From the IMG/VR virus record IMGVR_UViG_3300022745_000021, positions 40,960-104,959 of that record: 64,000 nt of DNA, one strand, 5' to 3'. The notes beneath the pieces are model-generated. The model saw only the letters and a program-made list of their open reading frames with translations, had not been told where the DNA came from and made no database searches. Positions 882 to 63,475 of this stretch are shown piece by piece (the stretch's first letter is position 1; each line of letters begins with the position of its first letter). This DNA is from a virus. Both the position numbers and the translations under genes were made by a program.

Positions 882-1438
882 GCGAAGTCTTCCAACGGCT
901 GTGCGCCATTGACGTACAGGGGATGCCGGGGGGCGCCGCTGTTGGTGGTGCCGAGGCACGCCAGCTTGGTCTCGGTCATGCGGGCAATCCGCTTGAAACG
1001 CTCGGCCTGCCCGATCGCCATGCTGTTCGCGCCCCATGCGCAGAGCACGGGGATGCGGCGGCACTGCGCGTAGTCGAGCACATAATCGAGCGCGTGCTCG
1101 TTGTCGGGGCCGAACGGGTTTGCAGCCCGTTGCAACTCACCCGGGTTGGTGGCGCGCAGCGCGAACAGGTTGGCGACCATCAGCCCCAAGTACCCTTCCC
1201 GCTTGGCGAAGCCGATGCAGCGCCGGATCGTGGGATCGTCCAGCCGCTCGTCGGCCGTGCTCGGGTTGAGCATGACGATCGGCAGCATGAACGGGCGCGG
1301 GTAGTCCGCCGGGTCGCCCTCGTTCCAGATGCGCGTCAGGCGGTAGCGGTACTGGCCGCATGGCGAGATATATGCGCTGGCGTAGCGGGTGGTGCGCGCC
1401 TCGGTGGTCGGTTGAGCGATCTGTGCCGTGCCGTGCAT
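878..1438 (-). CDS. DUF1643 family protein
   Basis: YRYRLTRIW, MLNPSTAD..DDPTIRRC, NLFALRAT, PRHPLY motifs; SD GAGGAGACC upstream. Confidence 0.85.
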   Translation of the reverse strand: MHGTAQIAQPTTEARTTRYASAYISPCGQYRYRLTRIWNEGDPADYPRPFMLPIVMLNPSTADERLDDPTIRRCIGFAKREGYLGLMVANLFALRATNPGELQRAANPFGPDNEHALDYVLDYAQCRRIPVLCAWGANSMAIGQAERFKRIARMTETKLACLGTTNSGAPRHPLYVNGAQPLEDFA

Positions 1439-1565
1439 TGTGTCTGGTCTCCTCTAGCTACCTACATGTGTTCTACATCGCGCCGCCTACACGCGCAACA
1501 TAATTTTACGTCAAACGGTTGCACGGATATTTGCAACTCGTTGCACCGCGATTATCTCTCGGGGC

Positions 1566-1985
1566 ATGAAAACGCTCTTGCTTCTCGCCGCTCTGGCCCC
1601 GGTTGTTGCCGGCGCTGGCACACCCGCCCCGCGCACCGCGTCCGATCCGTTCATCCGCTACGCCCGGCACGCGCTCGATACCCGCCTCAAGGACTATCCC
1701 CGCGCCCGGTTCCGCGACGCCCATGTCACCGTCTACGGGGATACCCACCGCCGGGTGCTGTGCGGGCGGATCAACGCCCCCAATTCCTACGGGGCGATGA
1801 CCGGCTGGCACGATTTCGTGGTGGGGACCAACGACATCGGCGATCCCTACCTGTACGAAGGCACCGACGACGTGACCGTGGCGATCATTGCCCAGCGCTG
1901 CACCGACGGCGTTCAGGCAGAGGAGCAGGACGTGTCTGGGTTGATCGCGGCCAGTGCTCCCGGCGCGGGCGCCGGGGTCTCATAG
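1566..1985 (+). CDS. secreted/periplasmic protein (only convincing plus-strand gene)
   Basis: Signal-peptide-like N-terminus MKTLLLLAALAPVVA; LKD..RARFRD and LCG.INAPNSYG.MTGW pattern; divergent from 878..1438 across an AT-richer gap. Confidence 0.65.
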   Translation: MKTLLLLAALAPVVAGAGTPAPRTASDPFIRYARHALDTRLKDYPRARFRDAHVTVYGDTHRRVLCGRINAPNSYGAMTGWHDFVVGTNDIGDPYLYEGTDDVTVAIIAQRCTDGVQAEEQDVSGLIAASAPGAGAGVS

Positions 1986-2524
1986 TAGGGCGCGATCCCG
2001 CGATAGCGAAAGGCTTCGAGCGCCACGTCGTCGAGCTTGATGCCGAGATGCAGGTCAAGGTCGGCCTCTGCCTCGGCGATCAGGCTTGCCGCCAGCGCCG
2101 CCGGGTCGAGGAGGTCCTTGTCGGTGCCGTACTCGTGCAGCGCCCGGATCGCGAACACGATCAGCCCATCATCGCGGTCCAGCTGGCGCGTGCCGTGCGG
2201 GACGTACGGGTCGAGGTAGTAGACCGTGCCCTCGGCAAGCGGCAACGGTTCCTGCCCTTCCACCTCCAACCAGTGGCTGCCCTCGGCGTAGAGGATCAGG
2301 CCGCCGATGCGCACGTCCGACGCAAAGTCCCGGTCGGTGTGCGTGCCTACCCCGCCGCGCCAGCCGGACAGGCAGCCGCACACCATGATCCCTTCCCCGT
2401 CCTCGTCGCCGAAGCCCCAGTCCGCCTCGTGGCCGAGCACCACCTTGAGCGCGGACCGACGCAGGGCCTCGGGGATCGGCGCGACGCCGGGGTGAATCGA
2501 CGCGGCGGACGCAGCCCGGTGCAT
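1913..2524 (-). CDS. putative 2OG-Fe(II) dioxygenase / cupin-fold protein
   Basis: HxD (HTDRD) plus distal H in GTVYYLDPYVPHG; TGATG coupling to the upstream gene. Confidence 0.45.
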   Translation of the reverse strand: MHRAASAASIHPGVAPIPEALRRSALKVVLGHEADWGFGDEDGEGIMVCGCLSGWRGGVGTHTDRDFASDVRIGGLILYAEGSHWLEVEGQEPLPLAEGTVYYLDPYVPHGTRQLDRDDGLIVFAIRALHEYGTDKDLLDPAALAASLIAEAEADLDLHLGIKLDDVALEAFRYRGIAPYYETPAPAPGALAAINPDTSCSSA

Positions 2525-3231
2525 CAGTAGTCCCCCTTCCCGCGCGACACGTTGTCCTCGTCAAGCTCGATCTTGGTGCCACAGGCGACATAGGCGCGCA
2601 GGCGCTGTTCGACGCCGTACACCCGGCCGATGTAGGACTTGGACTCGGGCGTGATCGTGTTGTCGCCGACGTAGGCCCCGGCGAGCGTGCCGTCCTCGCG
2701 GATCAACAGCCGGTGCTTGCAGCGGTACTTGTCACGCTCGGCGTAGACGTTGTCCTCGTCGAGGTAGACCCACGTCGAGCCGTGGTCGTTATGCTCGACG
2801 ATCACGGTGATGATCTCGCCCCATGCGTCGCTGTCGTGGGTTTCGAGCATGTACTCGGCGATCTTCGAGAGCTTGACCTCCTTGGGGGCCAGCGAGAGCA
2901 GTTCATCCATGTCCTGCGCCAGCCTGCCGGCGACGACTTCGCTGACACGCGCCTCGATCTGCGCTTTCAGCATTTGCGTGACGACGTGGCCGTAGCTCGG
3001 CAGATCAATGCGATCGACCTTGAGCGCGTCTTGGACCGCCGCCTCGATCATCTTACCAACGTCGGAATAGGTGCGCAGTGCACGGTCGATGGTCTCGATG
3101 ACCAGCTTCTCGACACGGGTGTTCACTTCCTTCTCGACGAACTCGGGGGTCATCTTGGCCGCGACCGCGTTGGCGATCAGGCCGGTGAAGGCGTCGGGGG
3201 CGGTTTCGGTGAGGGTATCGGTGTCAGCCAT
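2524..3231 (-). CDS. hypothetical phage protein
   Basis: 235-aa ORF, GGAG SD, typical codon usage. Confidence 0.75.
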   Translation of the reverse strand: MADTDTLTETAPDAFTGLIANAVAAKMTPEFVEKEVNTRVEKLVIETIDRALRTYSDVGKMIEAAVQDALKVDRIDLPSYGHVVTQMLKAQIEARVSEVVAGRLAQDMDELLSLAPKEVKLSKIAEYMLETHDSDAWGEIITVIVEHNDHGSTWVYLDEDNVYAERDKYRCKHRLLIREDGTLAGAYVGDNTITPESKSYIGRVYGVEQRLRAYVACGTKIELDEDNVSRGKGDY

Positions 3232-61783: not shown

Positions 61784-62401
61784 CTACTTGGTGTGGACGT
61801 GCAAGGGCGGCGCGAGCAGCGCGTCAGTCAGTTCGAGCCACAGATGGTAATGCGTAGACGTGTTGCACAGCGCGAAGTCGGCGGGGATGTCGCGCCAGTG
61901 GTATTCGCTCTCGTGGATACGCGGGTGCCAGCCCAACATATGCGCCAGCTTGTCGAACACGGTGCGCCGGGGTGCCTCGCCGTTGTCCACGCTCCACACC
62001 CGGCCGCCGAGCGCGTGGATCATCGCGCCCTCGTTGGGAAAGCGCATGCCGTCGATCACCAGTTTGCACCCGGTTGCAAGTCGCGCCACGATCCGCTCGC
62101 GGACGGCGTTGACCAGCAGGTCGGGGTGGACCATGTTGCGCGCCCACTCGGTGCCGAGCTTTTGGGCGACTTCGCGGGGGGACATGCCGCCCAGCCGGTC
62201 CTGCGGCGTGGCGCGGTGGCGCTGACTGCCCGACAGGTCCGCCTCGGTGAAGCCGAGCACACGCAGCATATCCTTGAGTACGCACGACATCGGCAGGACG
62301 GCGTAGCCGTGGTCTTCGGCGAGCATGCGGGCAACGGTGCTCTTGCCAGCACCAGAGGCACCGATCAGGCCGATCAGCTGGGGGTAGTTGGCAAGCGTCA
62401 T
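61784..62401 (-). CDS. deoxynucleoside monophosphate kinase (tandem paralog)
   Basis: IGLIGASGAGKST, SPRE..QKLGTEWAR, DGMRFPNE, HESE. Confidence 0.85.
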   Translation of the reverse strand: MTLANYPQLIGLIGASGAGKSTVARMLAEDHGYAVLPMSCVLKDMLRVLGFTEADLSGSQRHRATPQDRLGGMSPREVAQKLGTEWARNMVHPDLLVNAVRERIVARLATGCKLVIDGMRFPNEGAMIHALGGRVWSVDNGEAPRRTVFDKLAHMLGWHPRIHESEYHWRDIPADFALCNTSTHYHLWLELTDALLAPPLHVHTK

Positions 62402-62757
62402 GCGGGTTCCTTCTGGAGTTCCCGGCAGGTGGGGCAGGTCGCGTTGAACAGCGCCTTCTGCATGCGCTCCAGTTCAGCTTCGAGCGCGCGGATGCGGTCT
62501 TGGTAGCGCGCTTCCTTGGCGTCCCACTCCTCGGCGTCGCGTTCGCGGTCCTCGCGCAGCCGTGCCAGTTCTTGGCTCATCATGTTGAAGCCAGCCTGCA
62601 ACGAGCGGTTGAGGTTGGCGTGGGCGTTGGTAACATCCTCGGCGGCCGGATCGGGCTTGGCGCGCAGCTTGGCGATCAGGACGTTGGCGGTCTGGGTGAC
62701 CACCGCGCCGGCAAATGCCCAAAGCGGCGCCGACTGCAAGATGCTGGAAAGGTCCAT
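62398..62757 (-). CDS. putative holin/lysis-associated membrane protein
   Basis: One N-terminal hydrophobic segment plus coiled coil; upstream of the endolysin. Confidence 0.4.
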   Translation of the reverse strand: MDLSSILQSAPLWAFAGAVVTQTANVLIAKLRAKPDPAAEDVTNAHANLNRSLQAGFNMMSQELARLREDRERDAEEWDAKEARYQDRIRALEAELERMQKALFNATCPTCRELQKEPA

Positions 62758-62829
62758 GGCACGCTCCGGGGGTACATGTCTATCGGGGTAGGCCCTACAT
62801 GTGTAGCTTACCCCGACAAAACAAGAGCG

Positions 62830-63357
62830 TCAGGCGGCTTCGGCACCCGCCGACGCCGCTTCCGGCACCCATAGGACGTCGGTGGTGGGAGCGCCGTCGG
62901 CGGTGGGGGCGTCGGGAGCGTCAAGCGCGGGGGCGTCGGCGGCCGGGCGCAGATCGGTAATAGGCGGCAGGCTCGGCGGGTTCATCGCCGCGCGCAGGTC
63001 CGCCAGCGACACCGAGAAGTCGAACACGATCGTCTCGCCCTGCACCGACAGCGTGAGGCTGCTGGTTTCAGCGTCGCCGCGACGCGTCACCACGTCCTGC
63101 GGGCGCAGCAACACGCGGTTGCCGTCGGCGCCGGTCAGCGCCAGCATGCCTTGGCCCGCCGTGGCGGCGAGCAGCGCTTCAAACGGGGTGTTGGTGAGCA
63201 GCACAATCGTGCCCTCGGGCGCGATGACGCGCACGAAGCTCTTGGCGTCGGGGAACGTGGTGTTGTGCAGGGTGTCGAACGCCTGCGCGGTGACGATGCT
63301 GGTGGCCGGAATATCGTAGCCGCTGCCATCGACCAGTTCGAGGTTGGTAAGGTTCAC
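62830..63357 (-). CDS. hypothetical protein
   Basis: GTG start VNLTNLEL with GAGGAG SD. Confidence 0.6.
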   Translation of the reverse strand: MNLTNLELVDGSGYDIPATSIVTAQAFDTLHNTTFPDAKSFVRVIAPEGTIVLLTNTPFEALLAATAGQGMLALTGADGNRVLLRPQDVVTRRGDAETSSLTLSVQGETIVFDFSVSLADLRAAMNPPSLPPITDLRPAADAPALDAPDAPTADGAPTTDVLWVPEAASAGAEAA

Positions 63358-63475
63358 GTGGGTTGCTCCTCTTGTGGGAGCGATCATCGTACACGTGTAG
63401 GTATCATGCGTCAAGGGACGGGTTGCAACATCGCATAGTTGCAACCGGGTGCAACCCGTCCCCCTGCGCCGGGGC

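Follow-up and report, generated by a model that had tools for sequence, protein, structure and literature searches.

What does a short palindrome do that recurs throughout a phage genome, between genes and inside them? The question was raised by a 64,000-nucleotide stretch of viral DNA (hereafter the window), bases 40960-104959 of the single 104,959-bp phage contig IMGVR_UViG_3300022745_000021, in which an earlier note had counted by eye more than 30 copies of TGCAAC-N2/3-GTTGCA. The genome is 96% complete; the window has a GC content of 66% and carries nearly every gene on the minus strand. Unless stated otherwise, coordinates are those of the window, and no strand was assigned to the palindromes. 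On balance, the palindromes are probably docking sites on duplex DNA for a phage-encoded protein acting as a symmetric dimer, with proposed genome-wide and promoter roles, and the best candidate for that protein is one of 447 amino acids (aa; 37252-38595, minus strand). This reading is drawn from the dyad symmetry of the sites, their conservation in place, the copies in coding DNA, the even spacing and the lineage-specific variants of the motif.

The window contained 27 exact copies of TGCAAC-N2/3-GTTGCA; 100 shuffles that preserved dinucleotides averaged 0.01 copies, and 27 was never reached. The 104,959-bp genome contained 38 (28 with a two-base and 10 with a three-base spacer). One-mismatch sites numbered 24 in the genome; since 19 of these carried the identical substitution (A to G at half-site position 5, giving the half-site TGCAGC), they were taken as variants, not noise, and TGCARC-N2/3-GYTGCA was adopted as the working consensus. 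This degenerate form was found 57 times in the genome and 38 times in the window, where first-order Markov sequences gave 0.065 copies. The window-wide repetition described in the earlier note was therefore borne out (27 exact and 38 degenerate copies, far above the shuffled background), and each of the coordinates given there proved to be an exact or one-mismatch site; the sites at 28602, 31396, 37115 and 61279 had been missed. Tandem copies, described as having a 10-bp period, were measured at 10-11 bp apart at three loci (8522/8533, 57484/57494 and 59281/59291/59301). The 12 specified bases of the sites form a perfect palindrome, and a modest strand bias is confined to the central dinucleotide: on the coding strand, CCAG occurred 14 times and CTGG 4 times in this phage, and ACAT 9 times and ATGT 0 times in Agrobacterium phage JP1.

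Gene calls were trained on codon usage, and the genic or intergenic status of the sites rests on these calls. Intergenic DNA makes up 10.7% of the genome, whereas 25 of the 38 exact genome sites were intergenic; among the 13 genic exact sites, 6 lay within 40 nt of a gene 3' end (e.g. 35998, in a putative nrdB, and 38710, in a RuvC-like gene). The sites in coding DNA stressed by the earlier note were real, in that coding sequences contained 13 exact sites (0.19 after within-gene synonymous-codon shuffling, the codon-preserving count that the note had proposed) and 27 degenerate ones (1.47 after the same shuffling), but they were the minority of the exact sites. Because all three reading frames were used and the enrichment exceeded that of the synonymous shuffle, selection is taken to act on the DNA motif and not on the peptide. 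The examples that had been offered from essential genes fared less well: the copies in nrdA, polA and the intein are one-mismatch variants, and the recA copy falls in a doubtful N-terminal extension.

By its DNA polymerase I, the phage was nearest to the ~109-kb Rhizobium siphophages L338C, RHph_I4 and P11VFA (44% amino-acid identity), and further from Aeromonas phage HJ05, Agrobacterium phage JP1, the Rhodobacter cluster RcF phages and the Pseudomonas SM1-type phages; a near-identity search of a phage collection with 12 kb gave no match. All 15 related genomes checked (75-110 kb, with hosts including Rhizobium, Agrobacterium, Rhodobacter, Pseudomonas and Aeromonas) carried 16-59 copies of TGMAM-N4-KTKCA, in which the individual bases were lineage-specific. 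The same motif was present in exact form in L338C (47 copies, plus 12 with a one-base spacer), RHph_I4 (46), HJ05 (16) and the related genomes G004 (48), G003 (30) and G005 (29), and a scan for one 16-mer version matched L338C and several uncultured contigs of 85-97 kb. Variants were found in phage JP1 (TGCAAA-N2-TTTGCA, 33 copies), Rhodobacter phage RcTiptonus (TGCAATCGATTGCA, 21 copies), Pseudomonas phage SM1 (TGCAAR-N2-YTTGCA, 29 copies), the complete genome G002 (GCAACTGATTGC, 21 copies, with an asymmetric GCAAC-TG-ATTGC), the 91.7-kb G006 (TGAACC-CG-GGTKCA, 40 copies) and G007 (TGAAAM-NN-KTTTCA, 22 copies). G006, G007, G008 and G009 are loci that were reached through homologues of the 447-aa candidate protein. 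A central CG was present in the JP1, RcTiptonus and SM1 versions. The palindrome was not described in any paper retrieved by searching the literature for the exact motif strings or for the related phages by name.

The motif was identical in the Rhizobium phages and Aeromonas phage HJ05 and different between Rhizobium and Agrobacterium phages, from which it follows that its reader is phage-encoded. The opposite proposal, that the sites are operators for an exploited host transcription or sigma factor (of the NtrC, sigma-54, FNR or LacI type), is in keeping with the 14-bp 5-N4-5 geometry, which is FNR-type, with the fit of the JP1, RcTiptonus and SM1 versions to TGNAANCGNTTNCA, and with the sites that adjoin promoters. 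It is nevertheless very improbable, given this distribution among hosts and the replacement of the arms by TGAACC or TGAAA in other relatives; most sites also lie away from promoters, and their even spacing in structural genes lacks regulatory logic. Two more specific regulators were considered. The resemblance to sigma-54/NtrC sites was rejected on spacing, symmetry and lineage-specific variation. The CG-centred LacI/GalR form suggested by the earlier note (TGNAANCGNTTNCA with a central CpG, read by a protein of ~340 aa) was not supported, given the absence of CG at positions 7-8 from all exact window sites and the occurrence of spacers of one and three bases; no LacI helix-turn-helix (HTH) was found among the ~30 proteins scanned.

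Sequence comparisons indicate that the sites are under purifying selection and are strongly conserved in place. L338C and RHph_I4 aligned over 83 kb at 79% DNA identity, and 39 of the 41 alignable L338C sites were matched at the homologous place in RHph_I4, whereas the site-anchored flanks were ~60% identical. Some positions were held across very distant genomes, such as those upstream of the prohead protease gene (7 of 10 genomes) and of the portal, helicase and AAA+ ATPase genes, and a site lay close to the junction of the RuvC-like and 447-aa genes in 9 of 10 genomes.

The sites were also evenly spaced. With tandem copies merged, the genome contained 53 site clusters, separated on average by 1767 bp and at most by 4425 bp, the gaps having a coefficient of variation (CV) of 0.51; none of 10,000 simulations was as regular (P<1e-4), and the result was the same with a null that kept the numbers of genic and intergenic sites. 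The CV was 0.52 for the window alone, and spacing was significantly even in L338C, JP1, SM1, G003, G004 and G005 as well (CV 0.35-0.69). In all the genomes, sites were also found within the long tail, terminase and polymerase genes, so that gaps stayed below about 4-8 kb. The longest stretch of this genome free of the consensus palindrome is the 3' 8 kb of a 3,449-aa open reading frame (ORF) outside the window (genome coordinates 646-10995, minus strand), which has an atypical codon-position GC and is homologous to annotated tail proteins of L338C and JP1. That homology disposed of another candidate, N4-type hairpin promoters for a virion RNA polymerase, for which this ORF had been considered.

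An inverted repeat may be read as a duplex or as a hairpin. As an RNA or single-stranded DNA hairpin, the motif might be an intercistronic mRNA element (a terminator, a processing or stabilising site, or the target of an RNA-binding protein) or a lagging-strand priming structure. Several features would suit such a role: the preference for a position just behind stop codons and, in three phages (SM1, JP1 and HJ05), for one immediately ahead of the Shine-Dalgarno sequence or at about +1 of a promoter; the use of spacers of 1, 2 and 3 bases, which a loop tolerates easily; the T-runs that follow a few sites with three-base spacers; the bias of the central dinucleotide by coding strand; and a spacing on the scale of Okazaki fragments. 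Yet the motif alone was predicted to fold only weakly as RNA (-2.1 to -4.8 kcal/mol), T-runs were absent at most sites, and variants repeatedly broke the pairing in the middle of the 5-bp stem (A.G, C.U and A.C mismatches). The position 3 C to A variant of HJ05 and L338C yields A.G or C.U, a TGAACC arm is joined to a TGCACC arm in roughly half of the G006 sites listed, and the position-5 variant on the sense strand of this genome gave A.C 12 times and G.U 7 times, with no preference for the wobble pair. The arm sequence itself was conserved, beyond mere complementarity, and sites were kept at regular intervals inside long structural genes. The sites accordingly do not qualify as intrinsic terminators or structured RNA elements, and a hairpin role is quite unlikely; the weak folding, the pairing-breaking variants and the conserved arms favour a dimeric protein on duplex DNA.

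Relative to genes, the usual order on the coding strand was a stop codon, 2-20 nt, the site, 5-19 nt, a TTGACN -35 box, a -10 box, a leader, GAGGAGACC and a start codon. A -35-like hexamer within 25 nt was found at only 15 of the 57 sites, which agrees with the earlier remark that some sites lie just upstream of -35 boxes (about a quarter do, at 5-19 nt). A subset of sites in this phage, L338C, RHph_I4 and G004 preceded the -35 box by 5-12 nt (in this phage by as many as 19 nt), and in L338C this subset was part of an early-promoter cassette that recurs, TTGACAAAGGATCGGTTC...GTTAGATT. Many of the JP1 and SM1 sites instead followed a -10-like element, at about +1, or abutted the Shine-Dalgarno sequence. 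A role confined to the control of transcription initiation is unlikely, since the position relative to promoters varied by lineage and sites occurred inside long genes.

Searches with tblastn, using all called proteins against nine relatives, defined a core gene set comprising capsid, protease, portal, TerL, Cas4-like exonuclease, RecA, helicase, primase, PolA, DnaB, AAA+ ATPase and one 447-aa protein without assigned function. PDB searches with two other core proteins (128 and 348 aa) found nothing. The 447-aa protein, which was analysed by tblastn, structure models, fold matches and alignment, is put forward as the best binder candidate. It had homologues in 9 of 9 relatives and, by related-locus search, on contigs G006-G009, and its family, in which no member is annotated, is very large (2,594 representative clusters at E<=1e-3). 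In this phage and in L338C alike, the gene is preceded by an early-type promoter of its own, and a site lies just upstream of that promoter. In AlphaFold models, a KOW/SH3/Tudor-like barrel at the N terminus is joined through a disordered linker of ~100 residues to a helical C-terminal domain (predicted local distance difference test score, pLDDT, 84). In the family alignment, a textbook HTH (GFADYAKAELAIDYRKARYLISVF...GWSKA; GFADYAKAELAIDYRKARYLI...GWSKA) was accompanied by a strand-helix segment of the ribbon-helix-helix (RHH) type. The C-terminal model best matched Spo0J (VIA-align; Z 8.2, root-mean-square deviation 3.6 over 107 residues) and ParB-parS (Z 8.2), followed by KorB-operator complexes (Z 6.4 and 6.3), with SopB (4.9), VirB (4.6) and P1 ParB lower. 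Atlas leads for the candidate (DUF3102, ParB HTH and RHH_1) were consistent with these features, yet fell below the Atlas trust level, and DUF3102 itself had no match in the genome. The homologues in HJ05, RcTiptonus and SM1 end in lysine/alanine/proline-repeat tails (e.g. AKPAAKPAAK) like those of histone H1-like nucleoid proteins; the protein in the window has no such tail.

From the evidence above we infer binding of a protein at the duplex sites, the identity of that protein and the effect of its binding. A phage-encoded protein would bind the palindromes as a symmetric dimer on double-stranded DNA, and selection would hold one site per ~1.8 kb genome-wide, placed in short intergenic gaps where these are available and otherwise within coding sequence. 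The 447-aa protein would bind through its HTH domain, and its RHH-like end could dimerise it. At promoter-abutting sites, the bound protein may modulate transcription, the likely effect being that early promoters, that of its own gene included, are damped as the protein accumulates. Sites away from promoters would act genome-wide, for instance in marking or organising the phage DNA. A more far-reaching proposal, in which the KOW/SH3-HTH-RHH protein forms a widespread sequence-targeted genome-marking system that loads at palindromes every 2-3 kb and coats, bridges or organises the phage chromosome, is possible but doubtful. Of the earlier idea that a protein coats the genome at these sites, docking by a symmetric protein is thus retained by inference, and the stoperator-like silencing attached to it is not.

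Several observations weigh against docking by the 447-aa protein. A Z of ~8 is in the "common arrangement" range for helical models, and the Rubisco factor Raf1 scored equally; Foldseek found nothing significant for the C-terminal model, and with both models of the protein gave a weak match to the SH3-like N-terminal domain only. No ParB family was found for the protein in Pfam, by PDB phmmer, with a PDB profile or with 23 members against Pfam. Because Raf1 scored as well and Foldseek gave no significant match, the ParB/KorB-type fold suggested by the models for the HTH domain is tentative. Shared ancestry confounds the co-occurrence of protein and motif; the pattern was the same for eleven other core genes. 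The recognition helix of the HTH did not predict the motif across 11 loci: YRKAMYL went with TGAACC in G006 and with TGCAAC in HJ05. Distant homologues at loci L104-L106 (~25% identity) had no dispersed palindrome within 11-21 kb. As for the sites, the half-site spacing varies (one base in 12 L338C sites, three bases in 10 sites here), which is unusual for a rigid dimer, and the strand bias of the central dinucleotide is not explained by a purely symmetric duplex reader. The DNA-binding domains of KorB reportedly bind the two half-sites without contacting each other (Khare and colleagues, 2004); if so, variable half-site spacing would be tolerable.

Other proteins of this phage were considered as binders. 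The two HTH proteins named in the earlier note (26306-26647 and 42796-43269) were set aside, with homologues in fewer than 3 of the 9 relatives. That note had also named ParB-like proteins, and the sites might be bound by the ParB-N-domain proteins (27346-28086, 29805-30443 and 30434-31138) as spreading or sliding loaders like KorB or Noc, possibly with participation of a PAPS (3'-phosphoadenosine 5'-phosphosulfate)-reductase-like neighbour. ParB-family proteins classically read palindromes of 13-16 bp, and those of KorB and Noc are dispersed. The phage has three ParB-like genes (PHROG E-values 1e-31 to 1e-55), the ~2 kb spacing would suit proteins that spread from their sites, and ParB-N homologues were detected by tblastn in 6 of 9 relatives, JP1 having an annotated ParB-like nuclease. 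Binding by these proteins is unlikely all the same: ParB_N had no match in two motif-bearing genomes, G002 (complete, 21 motif copies) and G007 (22 copies), and the PAPS-reductase-like gene had homologues in fewer than 3 of 9 relatives. The ParB-N matches are moreover of the "nuclease" type often fused to methyltransferases (phrog_498), with no demonstrated HTH, and their Pfam scores are below the family cut-off.

Alternatively, the palindrome could be the target of a phage DNA enzyme, such as a modification enzyme, a T5-like nickase, or an enzyme (nuclease or recombinase) that initiates recombination-dependent replication or the exchange of modules. The candidate gene stands beside genes for RecA, two resolvases, a Cas4-like exonuclease and a helicase, and the interrupted 5+4+5 palindrome resembles some restriction-type sites. 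When L338C (L044-L046) was compared with RHph_I4 (L093-L098), 15 of 59 L338C palindromes lay within 30 bp of homology-block ends, against 2.2 expected, and blocks started exactly at a site at L338C positions 37329, 73292, 77304, 79734 and 90812, one of them being a module relocated in the other genome. This enrichment may reflect module exchange at the sites or merely their intergenic position; it is confounded, because sites and mosaic joints both favour gene boundaries and BLAST extensions are seeded by the conserved 14-mer. The core set yielded no conserved methyltransferase or nickase, and cutting of both strands at a symmetric site would break the genome. An enzyme target is accordingly given a small probability.

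Among described systems, the nearest published case is the 17-bp dyad repeat of Cluster O mycobacteriophages, and the closest functional models are the dispersed operators of KorB and other ParB-family proteins. The Cluster O repeat (TGTTCGG-N3-CCGAACA, >30 copies) was predicted to be read by a dimeric DNA-binding protein, its function being left unknown (Cresawn et al., 2015; PMC4351075). Both repeats are palindromes with more than 30 invariant copies across the genome of a lytic-looking siphovirus, located between genes, near gene 5' ends and within genes, and mostly off promoters; the motif thereby falls into the same class of dispersed dyads, which is descriptive and not a homologous family. 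The two differ in sequence, phage lineage and host phylum. The Cluster O repeat was described within one cluster of close relatives, whereas the present motif spans many genera and two host classes, with lineage variants, quantified even spacing and a candidate binder. As 13-15-bp palindromes dispersed in 57 copies over 105 kb, the sites also qualify as ParB/KorB-type sites, and they share their dispersal and variable position relative to promoters with KorB OB of RK2, the NBS sites of Noc and the SopB sites of N15. However, the ParB/KorB binders have a ParB N-terminal (CTPase) domain, whereas the candidate has a KOW/SH3-like domain instead and no detectable ParB_N (CTP-binding) domain, there being no Pfam match in it or in any of the 23 aligned members. 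There are ~55 sites here against 12 for KorB, and no ParA or partition function is evident.

The stoperators of Cluster A phages (L5 gp71) are likewise dozens of short dispersed sites, many of them in short intergenic gaps, but they lack symmetry, point in the direction of transcription and serve a prophage repressor, whereas the sites here are symmetric. Tyrosine integrase (PF00589) had no match in the 96%-complete genome (serine integrases and plasmid-prophage lifestyles were not searched for), no immunity repressor was identified in this genome, and a phage of the genus Samunavirus, to which SM1 belongs, has been described as lytic (PMC10281142). Lysogenic silencing of the stoperator kind, as put forward in the earlier note, was set aside on the symmetry of the sites, the lack of that integrase and the reported lytic relative. 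The palindromes bound by MatP (matS) and SlmA mark a large DNA domain for a dimeric organiser, and MatP uses a ribbon-helix-helix. These E. coli sites are short and scattered like those described here; they belong to bacterial chromosome systems, and no homology is evident beyond the possible RHH-like element.

Some of the individual sites of the window adjoin promoters. Two overlapping exact copies (8522-8546, with three- and two-base spacers, 11 bp apart) precede a TTGACG -35 box of the coding (minus) strand by 11 nt, and an exact site (10207-10220) with a stop codon 4 nt before it has a promoter-like TTGCGT box downstream. Exact sites with three-base spacers follow stop codons at 11070-11084 (3 nt, with a TTGACG -35 box 8 nt on), 13905-13919 (13 nt, with a promoter downstream), 14742-14756 (6 nt, with a TTGACA -35 box 19 nt on) and 19981-19995 (6 nt, with a TTGCAA -35-like box 9 nt on). 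The one-mismatch site at 18599-18612 is directly upstream of TTGACG/TTGACA promoter boxes. An exact three-base-spacer site (38710-38724) at the RuvC-like gene's 3' end is 6 nt upstream of the -35 box of the 447-aa gene's promoter. A tandem pair (57484-57507; exact and one-mismatch, 10 bp apart) is intergenic with a promoter downstream, and a triple tandem (59281-59314; one one-mismatch and two exact copies with a 10-bp period) stands upstream of the AAA+ ATPase operon. In that operon (55974-59181, minus strand), the triple tandem lies upstream of the gene for the AAA+ ATPase (PF00004, 550 aa), and genes for DUF1257 and DUF2997 proteins are near by, with a 213-aa gene between; the cluster of these three was kept in most relatives.

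Other intergenic or gene-end sites were exact at 1532-1545 (intergenic), 7741-7754 (24 nt from the 3' end of the gene at 7717-8322, minus strand), 11282-11295 (intergenic, with a start codon 16 nt on), 11882-11896 (three-base spacer, stop codon 5 nt before), 17070-17083 (close to the 3' end of a small gene), 21971-21984 (stop codon 2 nt before), 26269-26282 (intergenic, stop codon 24 nt before), 35998-36011 (in the final codons of the gene at 35984-37063, minus strand, which is nrdB by the earlier note's label only), 44871-44884 (intergenic, upstream of the helicase gene and kept in L338C and G005) and 48667-48680 (intergenic, directly downstream of polA). The one-mismatch sites at 37115-37128 (GGTGCA arm), 46323-46336 and 63440-63453 (TGCACC arm) are also intergenic, and that at 34232-34245 is in nrdA, 99 nt from its 3' end.

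Within genes, exact sites occur at 5204-5217 (gene 5005-5469, minus strand), at 53690-53703 and, with a three-base spacer, at 54258-54272 (both in gene 53546-55012, minus strand), and at 40364-40377, 73 nt into the Cas4-like exonuclease gene as called, where G004 has a site at the same place. An exact three-base-spacer site between recA and a resolvase gene (41031-41045) lies in a doubtful 66-aa ORF. Genic one-mismatch sites are located at 1121-1134 (GCTGCA arm), 12889-12902, 23258-23271 (in the terminase/intein ORF), 28602-28615 (close to the 5' end of gene 28079-28639, minus strand), 31396-31409 (in a PhoH-like gene), 50676-50689 (in polA), 61279-61292 (GGCAAC arm, the weakest member) and 62065-62078 (GGTGCA arm). 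In the recA ORF (41069-42373, minus strand), a ~70-residue N-terminal extension precedes the Pfam RecA domain and holds an exact site (42272-42285), which reads V-Q-P-V-A as in L338C and is followed by a AACACGTGTAGG motif. As the extension contains both the palindrome and this promoter-like AACACGTGTAGG, the true recA start is probably further downstream than the longest ORF implies, and site 42272 may be 5' of it.

The modules of the window are those of replication, recombination and nucleotide metabolism (PolA, RecA, helicase, ribonucleotide reductase, intein-bearing terminase and AAA+ ATPase). On the coding strand of 8421-20000, early promoters are followed by a leader with GGCAGGCAGGCC and the Shine-Dalgarno sequence GAGGAGACC, and palindrome, promoter, leader and Shine-Dalgarno sequence together form a repeated cassette. 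A second repeated motif, AACAYRTGTAGG, was found in 14 copies on the coding strand, 4 of them upstream of the window and the others at 1471, 8481, 26231, 31175, 33686, 37082, 42265, 48651, 55250 and 62804 (minus strand). Most copies are 20-60 nt ahead of the start codons of replication or structural genes, and some follow a TTGAC box; AACAYRTGTAGG may mark a middle/late promoter class apart from the TTGACN...GTGGTAY early class.

Dispersed dyad repeats are on record for a few phage groups, such as the Cluster O mycobacteriophages, and the present case is unusually tractable: the motif family occurs in cultured phages of five host genera, has natural specificity variants and is under strong selection even in essential genes. 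Its spacing rule points to a genome-wide role at the level of DNA, and a testable candidate binder comes from a very large unannotated family. If genome marking were true, it would set the phage chromosome apart from host DNA, with protein and motif co-evolving across phages of Alpha- and Gammaproteobacteria, and it might couple a ~100-kb, mostly one-directional genome to the transcription machinery. Identification of the binder and of its role would explain a conserved layer of phage genome organisation and give a function to thousands of hypothetical phage proteins.

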